A stretch of 64,000 nucleotides of DNA from the NCBI GenBank assembly GCA_017654855.1, contig CM030333.1, positions 992,001 to 1,056,000 of the forward strand, given 5' to 3'. Positions 22,344 through 46,311 of the stretch are shown here, one piece after another; within the stretch, counting starts at the first letter, position 1, and the number at the start of each line of letters is the position of its first letter. Below the pieces are notes generated by a model. That model worked only from the letters and a program-made list of their open reading frames with translations, searched no databases and had not been told where the DNA came from. The position numbers were made by a program, and so were the translations under genes. The DNA is from Podospora anserina (taxonomy: Eukaryota).

Positions 22344-25300
22344 TCAAGCAGTATGCTCCAACCCCCCCTCAACAGTCGCATCCTTCGCACTGTCATCCAC
22401 ATCCAACACCTTTTCCTCTTCCACCCCTTCCCCCTTTTCCTCCTCCTCCTCATCATCACTCACCTCCCACTCATTGGGCCTCACAACCCTAACCTTGACC
22501 AACCCCTCCACATCCTTATCCTCCTCCTTCACCTGGTAGTAAACCCTCAACCCCACCGCCACAACCGCATTCCAGGGGTCCTTGACAAACTCATCTTCTT
22601 CCTCTGACCTGTAACCACCAGGGCCATTCCCGGGGGGACCACCAGGGGGCCCACGGGGGAGCATGCTTCTCAAAAGGTTGGCTGCGTTGTCGTCGTTGTC
22701 GGAGACGAGGCAGTCGAGCTCCGAGTCGGAGAGGTCTGGGGGGGACATGGGGGGCATTATGGAGGGGGTGTCGGAGATGTAGCCGCCGTCGTCGGGGGGG
22801 TGCTGTTGGGGATAGGGGCGGCGGGGGGGTTGGTTGTCGGGGTAGTAGGGGGCTGTTGGGGCTCTGGAGGGGGGGCGGGAGGGGGGACCGGGTTGGTATT
22901 GAGGTTGGAATTGCTGCTGGGGATGTGTGTAAAAGGTAGGGGGTCGGGAAAGGGGGGGAGGCTGGAATTGTTGTTGGTCGGCTGTGGGGGGTCTCGAGGG
23001 GGGTCTAGAAGGGGGGCGGGATTGGGAGCCGGGATGTTGCTGATACATATGTTGGGGGATGATGGGGTGCTGGTAGAGAGGGTGAGGCCCGTTGAAGGGG
23101 TGGTGATGGGGTTGGGCGGGGTGCTGGTGGTAGATGGGGACCATGGGGGGCGGGTGAGGTTGACGAGGCATCTGTTCGACGTTGTTCTGGTCAGGTCTGG
23201 TCCCGAGGAGGTCCTCGAGCTCGGCCTTGAAGTGAGAGACCACTTCGAGAGCTTTTTTCAGCTTGAGGGTAGCCTCGGGATGGGGATCGATGTCTTTGGA
23301 ATTGGACGCAACATCAGCATCTTTGGCTGGGTCAACAGTGGCTCCTTCTTTATCATCCGTCGTGGCTGCCTTAACTGGCTCAGATGTGACCTCCTTCTGT
23401 TTGGCTTCCTCGTCAGGATTGGCAGGAACATTGCTGCTGCCTTCCTCTGCGGCATTGTTCTTTTCGGCATTGTTCTTTTCGGCATTGTTCTTTTCGGCAT
23501 TGTTCTTTTCGGCAAGTGCTCCTGACGATGAAAGGGAAGGAGTATCCTCGCCGACAGTGGACACATCAGGTTCGGCTGCTGCTTCCGCCTCGTCATCGGC
23601 TTTCTCCTCATGAGCTTCGATCTCAGTTTGGGTCTCTTTGTCGAGCTTGGGCTTCTCCGCGCCCGAGTCCGCCTGGACTTTTGACTCGGCCAGAGGTTGC
23701 TCCCCGACCTTCATTGGTTCCTCGCCATCCTTGGGTTTCTTATCGGGCTCTGCGCCCTCCTCCACAGCAACCTCAGTCTGAGTTCCCTCATCGAGCCTCG
23801 CCCTGTTGTTGCCCTTTGGCTTGTCAGCTTCATCATCCGCTTCAGCCTCTGCCTGCTCCTGCTCTGCTGCCTGCCTCATATGCTGCCTGGAATCCCGAGC
23901 TGCGCGCCTCTTCTCGTCACGTTTCTTCTGCTGCCCAACTCTCCATGCCTTCTCGTAGGCCATCTGCTTCTTCTTTTGTTTGATTTGCCTCAGCTCCTGG
24001 CGGTGGATCTTTTTCTGATAGTCAAGATATCGCTTCCGGACCTCTTCGCGGTGCTTCTGCTGTTGACGTTTCTTAAAGGCCTCACGCGCAGTCTTTTCCT
24101 CCTCGGTCTCTGCAATCTTGGCTTTGCTGAGTGCTAGGTCATGCGATAGGCCAATCCGGAGTATTTTGTCACGGCGGTTCTTGACATTGGCGCGCAGCAC
24201 CTCCTCAGGCTCCATCAAACCTTCATGCTTCTCCGCGTCAATCAAAACGAGGACGGTGTACTCGTCTGCCTCAAGGTCTAGCTCCACGCTGATAGACCTG
24301 CTCATGCCGTGGCCCGAAGCCTGACATCGAACGATGTAGTCCTCTTCGCCAGCCTTGTGGACACGGAACCCAAGCAGGAATTCATACCGGCCCTCCAAGC
24401 CTCGGAAATACCGTTCATCAAGCTGCGCCAGGACAAGAACGACTGGCCCCGATCTCTCCAAAGTGAAGGCGAACTTGGTGTGGTGGTATTGCGGCGACCA
24501 CGGAACATCGAGCGTCGTCCAGATCGAGGTGATCTTCCAATCAGGCCCAAACAACCTCGTACGTTCGAATCGCTGATACTTACGCAGCAGATCCTTGTAC
24601 GACATCCAAAATGAGCCGTCATCACCGAACTTGTGGTTCAGCTTGGTCAACCACTCGGGAGTCCATTCCTTACTGCCGTCACTCCATGCTCCTCGCCATT
24701 CACCCTTGCCCCACGGATTTTTCAACATGACCAGACGCACGCCATCAATCTCGACGGCCTTCATGATGGAGTAAGCGTGCCTCTCGACGATGCCTCTTCT
24801 GTTCCCATAACCGCACGCCATGTGACCGGTCGAACATCCAAACAAGAAGTCTTGGTTGACCTTCATCAGCTCGTTCTTCCAGAAAGCATCCTTATCCAGG
24901 ATATCGGTGGTATTCAACTCGGAAGTCACACCGCCGGTCAAATCCTCGATACCCTCGGCCGTGAAACCGCCATCGATGGCTTGATAATCGCCATGTGCTT
25001 TGGCATATGCCTTCTCCAGCAACGGGAGCCAGGTCTCGTTCAGATTCTCACACTGCGCAAAATACAGGGCGACACTTCCAGATTGAAAGTTTCGCCGGAA
25101 GATTTCCTCGGGGTCGGGGCGGTTTTCGATGTCATCCCATATTCGACGTTCGACGTTGATCAAGCCATCTACGACTTGCTCATCGTAGTCTTGCTTGATC
25201 AAGTACAGCTGGAAATATCGTCAGTATTGTATCCCGATCCAAATGCGAGGGAGGCAACTAACCTTGTCGTCGATGATTTCGCTGAACCACTCGCCATCAC

Positions 25301-39770: not shown

Positions 39771-40609
39771 ATGGTCAGGAAACTCAAGTTTCATGAGCAG
39801 AAGCTCTTGAAGAAGTGGGTGGTGATGGAATGATCGAGAAAGGGAGAAAGGCTAATGTGGGATGCGCAGGCATGACTTTGTCAATTACAAGCAGGATAAC
39901 AAGCATCGGGATCATGATGTTTCGAGGTATGGATTCTGTACTGTGGTTTTTGATGAATTGGGGCTAATGGTTGGTAGGCGGTATATGATTCAGAAGCCGG
40001 AGGATTATGTATGTTTTGATGGCATCGAGGATCTGACTGTTTCGTTGCATCTGGACCATTACTGACCTTTTCAAAGCACAAATACAACAAGATTTGTGGC
40101 TCTCTTCGACAATTGGCCCACCGTCTTAGTGTAAGTTTGGTCTCCGAATGAGTGGACTCTTGAAAACCAGCATGCTAATCCTCGATAGTTGCTTCCACCA
40201 GATAACGAGGTCAGAAGAAAACACGAGACCCTTCTTCTGGACAAGCTCTATGACATGGGCATTCTTTCGGTGTGTGACCCCATTCCATGATAAAGCAAAT
40301 GCCCATACTGACTGGTGATTCCAGACCAAGTCAAAGCTGTCTAATGTCGAGCACAAAGTCACAGTCTCAGCCCTTGCCAGACGGCGGTTACCAGTCGTCA
40401 TGACCAGATTACGCATGGCCGAGACCGTCCAGGCTGCTACCAAGATGGTGGAGCAGGGCCATGTCCGTGTTGGTGTTGAGCAAATCCAAGATCCCAGCTT
40501 TCTGGTGACGAGAAGCATGGAGGACTTCGTCACCTGGACCGCTGACAGCAAGATCAAGCGGAACATCATGAAGTACCGCGACAAGCTCGATGATTATGAT
40601 CTGCTCTAG
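39771..40609 (+). CDS. IMP3: U3 snoRNP protein Imp3 (S4 domain; 6 exons)
   Basis: Five short introns removed give [18 protein letters not shown]..., [81 protein letters not shown]. Confidence 0.96.
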
Positions 40610-41193
40610 AGGGTTAAGGTACGGGTAGATTCGCTAGGAGCATTTGCATTTTTGGCGTTATTATGGGCGGATGATAAACTTGGGCGTTGACAAGAGTTTG
40701 CCAGTTTGGCTTTAATTATCTTGTGAGACAATCCGATTTGATTTGATGTTTGTGCTGATTCAATGGGTTGGCCTAGGTCCCTGAAGCGTACCTTCCATGC
40801 TAACACCAGGCCTCCTTCCCCTGATTGACCTGCCTTCGGGGCCCATGGCAAGATTGTTCGGCGCTCTTTCCATTTATCAGATATTTTGTGGGAGTGTTTG
40901 CCACGCAAGTGTTCGATGACGGCAGACCAACATTCAATCCCCTTGCTCTACACTTCTTCCAATTCCATTCATCTTCACCCCCGTTTAGTCTTCATTGCAT
41001 CGTCTTTCGTTCATGTCCTAATTCCTATACGTTATCTTCATCTCCTCCTCCGACGTGGACAGAGGCTATCCAAACAACCAACCAACCACCAACCATTCCT
41101 ACACCCTTCGCTGGTCCAGAAGCCTCGAGGCCATCGCCTCCTGTCCCTTGTTCATCAGACTCTCTCCCTCAAGTTCATTCCGACTTCACCACA

Positions 41194-44100
41194 ATGAATG
41201 CCAACCACCCGCCAGAGCTCCGCACTGGGCTGCAAATGAGCACAACCGGACCAGACGTACCTCCTAGTCCTGAGTCTTGTTGCTTCACTACCGCACCAGT
41301 TGGCTTGCCAGATTTCGGTGAGGGTGTCTCGACCGTGCCTTCATCGAGCAAGGCATACCAGGATGCTCTGCAGAACCTGTCGGCCAGCCATCCTCCCTGG
41401 CTTGACAAAGCCGCTCCTCTGTCTTACTTTACGCCCGGGCTTGTTGGGTCCCGTGAAGGCTCTCCGAGAAGCTTCCTGTCACATCCACCGGTACAGAAGC
41501 CTCTACCAGTCGTTCCGGAAACAAGACGGAAACCTGATCCAGAAGCTGGTCATTCTGGTGGTGGAATTCAAGGCAGGATATGCATCGATCCCCGAATGCA
41601 TCCGACGAAGGCCCACGCGAAACTTCATCATCCAGGATTGCTGAAAGGAGCCGATTTTTGTGATGCCGGGGTTGAATGCGCTCCTATCGAGCCAATCGAG
41701 TCACCTGAAAAAGACAAACGCTTGTTTCCGTTCGGCGATTTCTTTGATGATTCTTCAGACGAAGAAGGCCCCGTCGTCGGCTACCGCTTCCGCAGACTCA
41801 CTGGTGGTGACATTTGCAGAGAAAGAGTAGACGTCTCCAACCACAAACACTCTGGTCACAGCTCAGCCCTCAAAGTACGGCCTGCTCTGGGTGTCACGGC
41901 ATTCAATCTTTCCGATCACGAACAACGTCAGCCGTATCATGGGGTGTCAAAGGTCCGCACACTAGCTGATATTCCCCCCATCAAACTTCTTAATCCGCCA
42001 CTGGAAATACCGTTGCGGGACAGCAGCTTGGCAGACCCTGGCCAAGTTTGTGATGACCTCGCACCCGAGCAGACAGAAGCCCGTTCCGATTCATCCCGGC
42101 CCTCCAGCGAATATTCATCGCGCTCTAGTTCCCGGCATATAGGCGATATGTTGCTCTATGGGGAAGGGCCGCCATTCCATCAACGTGCAGATTCCGCCCA
42201 GTCCATGATCTCGGACGGGACTGTATTCAGTCCATTTGAATCGGGTCAACCTGCTGTAGGAGAAATCTTTCATCAAGACCGCAGTCCTATCCTGGACGAG
42301 ACAGCTGTGCTGAGCGATGCTGAACCGGCTAACGCACCTGAAGAGACGTTGTGGGCCAACGGCAGGTCATTCAGTCAGAATGAGGATCCGATACTACGTC
42401 CATTAGAGTGTGGGTTTCCCACTGTCCATCCATGCTCTTGTGTTGTGCCGAAGGTCCAGCCGTCTACTGAAGATCTTCTGGGTGTTGGGCTCCGTCCCTT
42501 GGTCGAGTCTCCAAGAACCAAGTCAAGTGCGGAGAGAAGAACAAGGAATCGTCGAGCAGAAACGGCGCCCGAGTTGGCTGCATACTAGGAATCAACGTCT
42601 GAGGTAGCCAGGGGCTCGGATGTAGAGTTGTCAACTGCAAGCAAGAAGGTTGGCGAGCTCCATATTCGTCATGATACTGGGCATTCTACTAACACCTCTC
42701 AGGCATCTTCTGTTGATCCTCGCCGTGCGACTACGACCACCGTTTCGTCAAACTCGGGGGATGGTCCTCGCTCAACCGGAATAACAACCCCAAGAAATTT
42801 GGACCTCAGTCGTCTGGCCTCGTTCTTCCGTGACCTCACCAAGCCGTATGAGACGTACCAGTCCAAGTTGACTGAATTACCCGCAAGGGAAAATACGGTA
42901 GAGTCTGTTGCGGGCAATCAGCCAACGTCTCCCGTCTCGGGAAGGATCAGGAACCTCACTGGTAATTCCACCGCGTCAACATCCTTGGATACGCGGTTCA
43001 AGCGCACTGTGTGCAACATGGAACAACTGCTCAACAAAGCCATGGATTTGGCAAATCAAGCTGTTGACCAAGATGACCACCAATGTCTCGATATGCTTGG
43101 AACAGTGGACCATGAAGCAGACTCTCACAACTCTCCACCAAGTGTGCACGAGAGCCTACCTAGCGTCTACGAGTCGAGTGACGATGAACAGCCGCCTCCT
43201 CCTCCTCCTCCTCCTCCTCCTCCTGTTCACAAAAGAACGATCGAGAAGGTTGCTACGCCACGTTCTTCGATCAAGCAGCCTCCTCATGTCCCCAAACATC
43301 ATAGGTCAGCTCCTGGTATGCGCAGTAGGAACGTCAGAATCGAGATTCCCAAGAGGGTCACGAGCCTCAGGAAGCTTAACGCTGGTATGGTGCATGCCCC
43401 ACTATCAGACCTTCAACGGAGTCGATTTCAGGAGTTGTCGCCCCCAGTGAGCCCGCTCACGCACGCCCCTTCCAGACCAGACGATCACGGCCAGACAGAT
43501 TCTCTATCTGAACAAGGCTGCATTTTGATGAGTAGAGGGTCCAAGAAGGTCAAGAAGTGTCGCAGTTGCCGCCGTCTTCCTTTGCTCAACCATCGCTTCA
43601 GCTTCTTGTGTGCAAAGGAAGAGGATGTTCCTCTTAAGGATACTCGTTCAAGACCTGATGCCAAGCTGCGACCCGCCGGAAAGTCAATTTCGGGAAAGAT
43701 ACGAAAATCAAACTCTTGGAGCTTCGATGGTGCTGTTGACCATCGTCCTGATGATTCAATGGAGGACAGTCTGCTCCATGAGACGGATGGAGCTGGGCCG
43801 TCGGCCGAGAGATCATATCCGGTCAAAGATGATCACTTTGAGCAAGATGATCCTCACCCCGAGAATGGTACCGACAGCAGACGCATCAACCTTCGTGGCA
43901 AGGCACACGTCAGTCTCAGAGGCTATCAGGGCTTCAGCCTCGCTCGTGCATATCGACGCCATCCCATTGCTCGCGACTGGTCTACGGTCCGGAAACGTTT
44001 TGTGGCGACGGTTGCATGCCTGAGTACGGCTGTCATTGGTGTTCTTATCGGCATCTATGCTGGTATGGTGCCTTCGATACAGTACATGATTGCTGACCTG

Positions 44101-46311
44101 CAACACTACGCCATTCTCGGCAATGTTTTCTTCTACATTGGTCTCGCCATCCCCAGCTTCTTCTTCTGGCCGTTACCTCTTCTTCATGGCCGGAAGCCCT
44201 ACATCCTGTCGAGTTTGGTCTTGGCTATGCCTCTCCTCTTTCCCCAAGCCATCACGGTTAGCCAGCCTCGGTCACCCTATGTCAGCACCTGGAGATGGGC
44301 TCTGTTGAGTTCTCGTGCCTTCATGGGCCTTACCCTGGGCTTTGCTAGCATGAACTTTCACTCCGTATTGACTGATCTGTTTGGGGCTTCGTTGATGAGC
44401 GGCAACCCGCACCAAGAGATTGTTGACAAGCATGACGTGCGAAGACACGGAGGAGGTATGGGTGCTTGGTTGGGGCTCTGGACATGGTGCTACACTGGCT
44501 CTCTTGGAATTGGGTTCTTGCTTGGGGCCGTCATCATTGACAGCGCAAACCCATCATGGGGATTCTACGTCAGCATCATCCTCATCATGTTCATCCTTCT
44601 TTTGAATGTTGTCTGTCCCGAAGTCCGACGCTCCCCGTTCAGGAGATCCGTGGCTGAGGTCAGAAACGGCAACCGGGTTTCGAGAAGGGTGGCCCGAGGG
44701 GAGGTCATGATGCATCGTGTCAAGGATGGTCCTACATGGTGGGGGCAAGAGGTGTACCATGGCATCTTGTTGTCGCTGGAGATGCTTCGGCAGCCTGGCT
44801 TTCTCATCATTGCGCTCTACACGGGATGGATCTACGCCCAGGTCGTCCTAATCATTGTTCTCCTGGGTGCCTTGACGTCGAGGTCATACCAGTTGAGGTC
44901 ACCGTTTGTTGGTCTCTGTGTCGCTTTCATTTCGTTCGGTGCTTTGGTGGCCATCCCGTTCCAAAAGGCGAACTTATTTTCTCGGGGTCGCCACCACCAG
45001 CAACAGTCAAATGAGGATACATTCGACAAGAAGTTCTCATGGACGTCTCACCTGCTGAGGCGGACAATTGTTTGCTTGGTGTTGCCTCTTGTGGGAGTCG
45101 CCTACACATTTGCCTCGACCGGCCCTCCGGTTCCTCTTGAAATCCCTACACTATTCGCTACGATGATTGGTTTGCTCTCGGGTCTCGCCATCTCAGAATG
45201 CAACGGCTTGATCATGGAGACATTTGACACTTCGGATCTTCACCCGGGAATGACTGGCCGGCCGCGTGGTGCCTCCAACAAGTCATCCAAACGCACCAAC
45301 TACTCGTCTTTTCCCTGCGTCACAGCCGGGTTTGCAGTTTGCCACACGATTGGGTTTGTCCTGGCAGCTGTGGCTACGGCAGTGGGAGGTAATCTGCAGC
45401 GAAACCTCGGTCAGCAAGCTGCAACTGGTGTCGTTGCCGGTATTCTGTTAATCCTGACGCTCCTTCTCCTCGCGGTTCTCATTCGCTTCAAAGATGTGCA
45501 AATCATTCCCGTTTCCAAGAATCTCGAGATGGAAAAGTGGGAGAAGTACCGCAGAGAGAGCATCCGCCGTCGCTCTGAAGTGTCCGCACCTGCCACACAA
45601 AACACCATGACCGACGCAGAGATGTGGCGGCCTCTTCTCATGGGCAATCCCTCTAGCCGCATGCGCCGTGTCAACATTCTTGAGCTGGGGTCCATGAGTC
45701 GGTGGACAGAGATTCGCAAGAAGAACCGTCTGATTGATGAGACGTCAGCTCATCTCAACCGTGCTGCTCTCGAGTCGGCAGCTACGGCCCTTGAGGAGAC
45801 AACCACTGATCTTGTCCGTCGTGTCAGCAGCCGGAGGAACAACCGGAGCCCTCCGCCACGGAGGTTTTTCACTGGCAGCCCTGGCCCTTCGGGGGTAGCG
45901 AGAAGTGAGAGTCCCATACAGCGGGCTGTGATGACGCCAAAGGCTATGGAGCTTGATTCCTTTATTGTGGTCAGACAACCACCTGTTGCTGCTACTGCTG
46001 TTCCGGCGAGTCCATCGCCACTTCCGGGCCATTCCAAGACGAGAGGCGCCGGTGATGACTTTATGGAGCGGGAGTGTGTCATGGGGCAGACGGTGAAGGA
46101 GGAAGAAAATGAGAATGGGGATGGGGCGCTGTTTGAGTCGAGTGATTTTTTGAGTTCGTCGGATGACCAGAAGGATGTTGTTGGGCGTGGTCGTGCGGAG
46201 ATCAAGGACAAGTTTGATGATGCGGGACATCAAGGTCATGGTCATCAGAGTCATTTTCAGGAGGAGGAGAGCGAGGGGAGGAGGAATGGGAATGAGATTC
46301 AAAGGAAGTGA
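41194..46311 (+). CDS. AMD1: Large MFS-domain membrane protein (AMD1-like) with one in-frame premature TAG at 42586-42588; predicted 1705 aa if recoded to Trp
   Basis: ORFs 40825-42588 and 42628-46311 are in the same frame, separated only by TAG; first ATG in good context at 41194; C-terminal half has about 11-12 TM segments with HPIARDWSTVRKR and PLPLLHGRKPY (DHA1-like MFS). Orthology to AMD1 is from recall, not searched. Confidence 0.8.

Follow-up and report, generated by a model that had tools for sequence, protein, structure and literature searches.

The gene PODANS_2_1870 of Podospora anserina encodes a putative transporter of the MFS family with a long N-terminal arm, and its reading frame is interrupted by a single in-frame TAG at codon 465. 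The gene lies on the forward strand of the DNA analyzed here, a stretch of 64,000 nucleotides (GenBank assembly GCA_017654855.1, contig CM030333.1, positions 992,001 to 1,056,000) that is called the window below and to which all coordinates refer. The TAG is probably a restorative adenosine-to-inosine (A-to-I) editing site of the premature stop codon (PSC) type, at which editing in the sexual stage would yield the full-length transporter. The stop is genomic and is kept in the spliced mRNA. In addition, it appears to have replaced a conserved Trp, its sequence context is predicted to be optimal for fungal A-to-I editing, and the membrane domain encoded downstream of it seems to be still under constraint. 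The site is a strong but unproven candidate for editing of this type.

Two stop-to-stop open reading frames (ORFs), 40825-42588 and 42589-46311, abut each other and have one common frame. The resulting frame of 5.1 kb has its first Met at 41194, which agrees with the MNANHPPELRTG start of homologues, and its closing stop at 46309-46311. An earlier note on this DNA, made from the letters of the sequence, had described the TAG as the lone stop in this frame, and this description holds: 464 codons lie upstream of it and, in the unspliced read-through frame, 1240 codons lie downstream of it without a further stop. Its context in the window is GCA TAC TAG GAA TCA ACG TCT GAG GTA GCC. One 54-nucleotide intron was overlooked at that time, and the coding sequence now consists of 41194-42648 plus 42703-46311, giving 1687 codons with the TAG as codon 465. 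The features of the gene are the following.

41194-42648, forward strand: exon 1 of PODANS_2_1870, 485 codons, encoding the N-terminal, largely disordered arm and containing the TAG
42586-42588, forward strand: in-frame TAG, codon 465, with 42587 as the candidate edited A; a Trp codon in relatives
42649-42702, forward strand: intron of 54 nucleotides, phase 0, GT..AG, with a TACTAAC branch site at 42687-42693
42703-46311, forward strand: exon 2, 1202 codons plus the stop, encoding the middle disordered region, the MFS domain and the C-terminal tail
43999-45483, forward strand: membrane domain with 10 strong hydrophobic segments
44020-45225, forward strand: Pfam MFS_1 (PF07690), E = 1e-09, 38.2 bits against a cut-off of 33.4

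The identity of the gene was established by alignment. The 90% cluster of the best homologue match includes PODANS_2_1870 of P. anserina S mat+ (P0210, 1676 aa), and this protein has 0 mismatches to the translation of the window. A run of proline codons (PPPPPPPPPPP) is present at 43180-43232; its length differs among sibling species, with alignment gaps at residues 667-672. The membrane domain begins near residue 915 of 1687, and a crude Kyte-Doolittle hydropathy scan gave weaker segments in addition to the 10 strong ones. Homologues that extend across both halves of the gene, of approximately 1200-1700 residues, are found in Podospora, Triangularia, Cladorrhinum, Neurospora and other Sordariomycetes. 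Because an MFS_1 domain is predicted downstream of the TAG and full-length homologues cover both halves, the coding nature of both halves appears to be far beyond chance.

The TAG was followed in assembled contigs from four runs: X1, X2 and X4, which belong to three studies, and X15, a genome-sized, DNA-like run. Four other runs, X21-X24, contain 0.00-0.05 of the sequence words and were left aside. X1, X2 and X4 are taken as RNA-derived solely since a spliced joint, the 54-nucleotide GT..AG joint, is present in them and missing from X15. The coordinates of this intron are given after a shift of the contig joint by +2, and its 18 codons are likewise missing from the homologue models P0001, P0002 and P0004. 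The comparison left out the proline-codon repeat at 43180-43232, and no further joints are present within the covered parts 43233-46248 (X1) and 43336-46223 (X4). The TAG is crossed with 0 other letters by contigs of X1 (41209-42646), X2 (40600-42646) and X4 (42374-42611). The earlier note had considered that genomic reads might show TGG or CAG at this codon; X15 reads TAG, at a depth of 56. The TAG is real and part of the mature mRNA, because X15 and the spliced contigs of X1, X2 and X4 all read it. An assembly or sequencing error, or a mutation private to one strain, is a negligible explanation, as the same codon is found in the window, in X15 and in the contigs of three other studies, and the public models of P. 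anserina S mat+ and of three sibling species all need a bypass at this codon. Over the start-codon region (40600-41223), the contigs are much deeper (125 in X1 and 271 in X4) than over the gene body (11 and 2-8); these deep contigs could represent a neighboring or antisense transcript, or a strong 5' leader.

Public gene models bypass the TAG, and the earlier expectation that annotation would invent an intron at this position was borne out in P. anserina and in two sibling species. Annotations of four members of the P. anserina complex get around the TAG in three different ways.

42502-42588, forward strand: bypass intron of 87 nucleotides in P. anserina P0210, with the AG of the TAG itself as acceptor
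About 42573-42611: bypass intron of 39 nucleotides in P. bellae-mahoneyi P0209
About 42573-42611: bypass intron of 39 nucleotides in P. pseudopauciseta P0001, the same as in P. bellae-mahoneyi
P. pseudoanserina P0211: bypass by a frameshifted exon

Aligned to the unspliced read-through translation, P0210 lacks residues 437-465 only and is otherwise identical to the window; it reads the real 54-nucleotide intron as coding. None of the bypasses of the four species matches the spliced contigs of X1, X2 and X4. Based on these gene models, and not on the DNA of the species, the stop appears to be common to the P. anserina species complex. If one of the annotated 87- or 39-nucleotide introns were spliced under specific conditions, it would take out the TAG and editing would be needless. 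Both candidate introns are GT..AG, keep the frame and are used in public annotations, but no TAG-removing joint is present in X1, X2 or X4, although the adjacent 54-nucleotide intron is spliced in all three. In this respect, the claim in the earlier note that no frame-keeping intron with a branch site removes the TAG has stood, apart from the neighboring intron that it missed. The models of the four species also disagree among themselves, and the segment removed would take the conserved ...ELVAYW... motif with it. In addition, 39 nucleotides is below the usual length of fungal introns. Condition-specific splicing of this kind is considered very improbable. A further candidate, the donor GTTGGC at 42573 combined with the real acceptor, was rejected: it would cut 130 nucleotides and break the frame, and no such joint occurs in the contigs.

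The codon at this position is conserved outside the P. anserina complex. A check of relatives, as proposed in the earlier note, was carried out on 86 proteins with the motif [AT][YF]W[EQ], and a Trp was found at the codon-465 column in 17 Sordariales homologues. These include proteins of Neurospora crassa, N. tetraspora, Sordaria brevicollis, Cladorrhinum spp., P. australis, P. fimiseda and Triangularia (Apiosordaria) backusii, and the motif of the relatives around the codon is S-A-S-E-L-V-A-Y-W-E-S. Sequence comparison indicates that Trp is ancestral at codon 465 in the Sordariales, because these 17 homologues have W at this column. The difference between TGG and TAG is a single G>A change. 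Three other models skip the site. In T. verruculosa, the model P0003 passes directly from ...SASEL to the acceptor of the 54-nucleotide intron, the same jump is made in Lasiosphaeria miniovina P0019, and P0212 of 'Cercophora samala' QBC41 is without exactly four codons, VAY plus W or a stop. These three models are compatible with a stop at codon 465 and would equally fit a small deletion or a mis-chosen donor. The protein P0212, labeled 'Cercophora samala' (QBC41DRAFT), is in a 90% cluster with the C-terminal ORF of the window and is far nearer to P. anserina in this gene than 'Cladorrhinum samala' (QBC42DRAFT) is; the two labels may mean different organisms.

In Fusarium graminearum, the bases preferred around edited sites are U at -1, which is the strongest preference, either pyrimidine at -2, either purine at +1, +3 and +4, and G at +2 (PMC9600606). 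In the same fungus, 62% of the sites are located in predicted hairpin loops and the primary sequence outweighs the structure, and N. crassa is similar (PMC9600606). The earlier note had pointed to U at -1, G at +1 and A at +3 of A42587; all three are present, together with the preferred C at -2, G at +2 and A at +4, so that 6/6 neighbors are the preferred ones. This six-position context occurs at 2/1117 A's of the mRNA, A42587 being one of them, and none of the remaining Trp codons (0/18) would gain the full context by a TGG>TAG change. The context of codon 465 comes from the flanking conserved Tyr (UAY) and Glu (GAR) codons; therefore, a G>A change in this Trp codon would yield an optimal site at once. 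Judged by the Fusarium preferences, the sequence context of A42587 is predicted to be optimal for fungal A-to-I editing.

The conservation of the gene downstream of the TAG was analyzed by counting the replacements between the window and P. pseudopauciseta P0001 in each region. The replacements per aligned position are as follows.

N-terminal arm: 10/460
Middle disordered region: 10/439
Membrane domain: 1/507
C-terminal tail: 6/266

Past the TAG, the single replacement in the membrane domain (1/507) compares with 16/705 in the disordered parts (Fisher p = 0.002). The MFS domain seems to be still under constraint, because neutral decay after a true truncation would not spare the membrane domain. 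The identity of the MFS domain to the window is 95.5% in T. verruculosa and 94.8% in T. setosa, which have skipping or split models, and 94.6% in T. backusii, which has the W. These results bear on the possibility that the gene is a young pseudogene, in which case the P. anserina complex would no longer have the transporter, translation would give a 464-residue fragment at most, and the frame would be open for lack of time. With approximately 98% protein identity among the species of the complex, 1200 codons of open frame say little by themselves, and editing is not seen in the contigs, as a pseudogene would predict. However, the uneven distribution of replacements past the stop does not fit such decay, and neither does the position of the stop, on a conserved Trp with an optimal editing context that is available to none of the other 18 Trp codons. 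The more distant codon-skipping models of T. verruculosa (P0003) and 'Cercophora samala' (P0212) also keep 95% MFS identity. P. anserina discharges its spores normally, which counts against loss of the transporter as well. Moreover, F. graminearum needs this family for ascus maturation (PMC5496914). Pseudogenization is thus quite unlikely.

Constraint on the MFS domain demands only that the domain be translated by some route, and this leaves room for a bypass without editing. The MFS part could be made from an internal start, on a shorter transcript or at a downstream AUG, or by low-level readthrough of the UAG, with both halves under selection either as distinct proteins or as products that are fused now and then. 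Such a bypass would be in line with the spliced contigs, which all read A, and with the annotation of the gene as two separate proteins in T. setosa and Cladorrhinum samala. It is nevertheless regarded as unlikely. The first in-frame Met past the TAG sits at ...CNMEQLL..., downstream of a conserved ...KPYETYQSKLTELP... motif, and the stretch between the TAG and this Met also seems to be translated, because the motif is kept in relatives. In both X1 and X2 the TAG lies within one unbroken contig, although a contig alone is no proof of a single transcript. A UAG followed by G is not known to be a leaky context, and re-initiation after 464 codons would be unusual.

Several points weigh against editing of the TAG. 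The spliced contigs of X1, X2 and X4 contain no edited form: all have A at 42587 and no other letter gene-wide; these contigs follow the majority path and drop minority variants, and the developmental stage of the samples is not on record. The unedited form is the assembled, majority form in the three runs. No measured A-to-I mRNA editing in Podospora was found in the available portions of the literature, and the same holds for a published catalog of Podospora editing sites and for any mention of Pa_2_1870; the papers retrieved on Podospora refer to editing only in passing. The constraint test presumes that the TAG is older than the split between the window and P. pseudopauciseta, an age that comes from gene models and not from DNA. 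The hairpin around the site is also less convincing than it had seemed. The earlier note had placed the A in a loop closed by a 7-bp stem, the arms of which are the following.

42575-42581, forward strand: 5' arm TGGCTGC, present in the minimum free energy folds at +/-30, 40 and 100 nucleotides
42604-42610, forward strand: 3' arm GTAGCCA, with 7 bp in total, six Watson-Crick pairs plus one G.U

The stem was recovered, but the A is not cleanly looped. In the +/-30-nucleotide fold, A42587 lies within a weak 4-bp inner helix and is unpaired about half of the time. Its probability of being unpaired is 0.46 (+/-30), 0.47 (40), 0.77 (50), 0.97 (75) and 0.47 (100 nucleotides). The 66-nucleotide fold is not significant (z = -1.47), with 18/200 shuffles folding as well. 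The hairpin was rejected as stand-alone evidence, the fold being no better than chance and the unpaired probability varying with the flank.

Other published observations concern the editing system itself. The sexual-stage mRNA editing system has been traced to the common ancestor of the Sordariomycetes, and some PSC pseudogenes are transcribed in hyphae too (PMC10776026). In P. anserina, ADAT-type genes are reported to be up-regulated in perithecia (bioRxiv 10.1101/2024.12.09.627484).

With all of this taken into account, restorative editing of TAG465 in the sexual stage is the explanation that we consider probable, and the following course of events is proposed. A G-to-A mutation would have changed the UGG that is conserved in the Sordariales (...ELVAYWES...) to UAG, which then became fixed in the P. 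anserina complex. The mutation may have been tolerable since, between the Tyr and Glu codons, a UGG>UAG change falls in the optimal editing context found here. The primary transcript keeps the UAG, as read in the contigs, and in vegetative or early tissue translation would halt after 464 residues. The sole exon-exon junction of the gene is located 60 nucleotides downstream of the TAG, and the usual rule for junction-dependent nonsense-mediated decay is a distance of 50-55 nucleotides. The unedited mRNA is a candidate for this decay because of that distance, and it is speculated that it may be a target. Components of nonsense-mediated decay are said to exist in P. anserina (PMC9801653). During ascus development, the sexual-stage A-to-I system would deaminate A42587, and the resulting UIG would be read as UGG, giving the ancestral Trp and a full-length transporter that would be made only then.

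A comparable case has been described in F. graminearum. The protein AMD1 (PSC04, FGRRES_10094) has 1386 aa, an MFS domain at 618-840 and 11 helices, and is needed for ascus maturation (PMC5496914). Its UAG at nucleotides 631-633 (codon 211) is converted to UGG in perithecia, with 97.6% editing at 8 days post-fertilization (PMC5496914; PMC10776026). In this gene, too, an intron was mis-predicted over the stop, and orthologues of AMD1 are reported only in ascocarp-forming classes (PMC5496914). The earlier note took the P. anserina gene for the AMD1 orthologue. This was confirmed as far as the family is concerned, namely an MFS protein with a long N-terminus, but the stop is not at the Fusarium position. 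The exon-2 product has 56% identity over 742 aa to Fusarium albosuccineum P0114, collinear to the C-terminus. The N-terminal half gave no significant pairwise BLASTP match to P0114 (E = 0.43). In a multiple alignment, the N-terminal motifs HHLLKTS..GP, HHPGLLKGADFCD and H.GHS.A.KVRP align across Sordariales, Trichoderma, Cosmosporella, Colletotrichum and Verticillium, which spans the Sordariales, Hypocreales and Glomerellales. The homology of the N-terminal arm rests on this multiple alignment, because the pairwise comparison is not significant. The homologue and representative searches returned other Fusarium and Nectriaceae proteins and no named F. graminearum protein, and none was named in the two clusters consulted.

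The position of the Fusarium stop can be placed on the gene of the window. Two Fusarium N-terminal fragments, P0128 (Fusarium sp. NRRL 66182) and P0118, end at one column, which corresponds to residue ~196-197 of the window. Counted from its MFSTFF Met, P0118 is 210 residues long, so that the stop falls at codon 211, as reported for AMD1 (PMC5496914). No premature UAG is present in the P. anserina gene at the F. graminearum position, and the Podospora stop lies ~270 residues further downstream. From this mapping, the Podospora stop appears to be an event independent of the Fusarium stop, because the latter is ~270 residues upstream of codon 465. Membership of the gene in the AMD1-type MFS family is well supported by these comparisons, and strict orthology to F. 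graminearum AMD1 is probable.

Both genes encode a long N-terminal region, an MFS domain of ~11 helices and a conserved tail, and in both a lone premature UAG is present in the N-terminal arm and is skipped by an invented intron in a public model. They differ in that the Fusarium stop column is not Trp in the other aligned sequences, whereas the Podospora column is seemingly ancestrally Trp. In addition, editing, stage-specific expression and function are established for AMD1, whereas the Podospora gene is known from sequence and contigs alone. PSC stops in general are TAG codons that originate chiefly from TGG; they have arisen several times independently, have also been lost and regained, and lie for the most part in proteins that contain disordered regions (PMC10776026). 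The Podospora site resembles PSC sites such as that of PUK1 in that a UAG derives from a UGG in a disordered region of a Pezizomycotina-specific gene (PMC10776026, PMC5496914). The U at -1, the downstream purines, the apparent occurrence in sibling species and the apparent recurrence in related lineages are also common features (PMC10776026). An RNA-DNA difference has been demonstrated for those sites, whereas the Podospora site is a candidate only.

A second Trp codon of the same gene may have been affected in related fungi.

42352-42354, forward strand: conserved Trp codon W387, TGG in the window, in the motif E-T-L-W-A-N-G of the N-terminal arm

In T. setosa (P0082) and Cladorrhinum samala (P0218), the annotated N-terminal protein breaks off after ...E-T-L, directly before W387, and so do the ORFs P0083 and P0219. 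What follows of the gene forms a separate, intact annotation, namely P0004 in T. setosa and P0007 in Cl. samala, the latter with W at the column of codon 465. The T. backusii model skips a stretch that contains the W387 site. Based on these gene models, W387 looks like a second recurrent stop site in this gene. The pattern at W387 and W465, a conserved Trp with the frame kept downstream, matches the PSC sites described in PMC10776026. The known or putative stops are those at ~197 in Fusarium, at W387 in T. setosa and Cl. samala, and at W465, the last in the P. anserina complex and seemingly in T. verruculosa and 'Cercophora samala' QBC41 as well; the downstream transporter is intact in each of these lineages. 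A tentative interpretation, which we put forward with some reserve, is that the AMD1-type transporter has been gated by stops repeatedly and independently at different codons, with selection favoring that it be withheld outside the ascus and released by RNA editing.

Elsewhere in the window, three more pairs of ORFs, each of at least 150 codons, are parted by a single stop, all on the reverse strand, at 25221, 29881 and 23258. These stops are TGA, TAG (GTATGG TAG, which resembles an intron donor) and TGA, respectively, and they are probably located in ordinary introns.

PSC editing and AMD1 were already known; the P. anserina candidate, which occupies a new position within the family, appears to be an addition to them. 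If the editing is real, a clear restorative-editing site that can be tested would become available in P. anserina, a fungus that is easily crossed and serves as a genetic model, and in a family involved in ascus maturation. The public gene models of P. anserina and its three sibling species would then need to be mended, with one 54-nucleotide intron and no bypass intron. If editing were refuted, a conserved stop would be bypassed by another route, which would be less expected. If editing is confirmed, stops at three codons of one family in separate lineages would provide independent support for the view that edit-corrected stops are selected and not merely tolerated. If the interpretation of repeated gating is also true, nature would have provided in this gene a replicated experiment on the survival-reproduction trade-off model for restorative editing.

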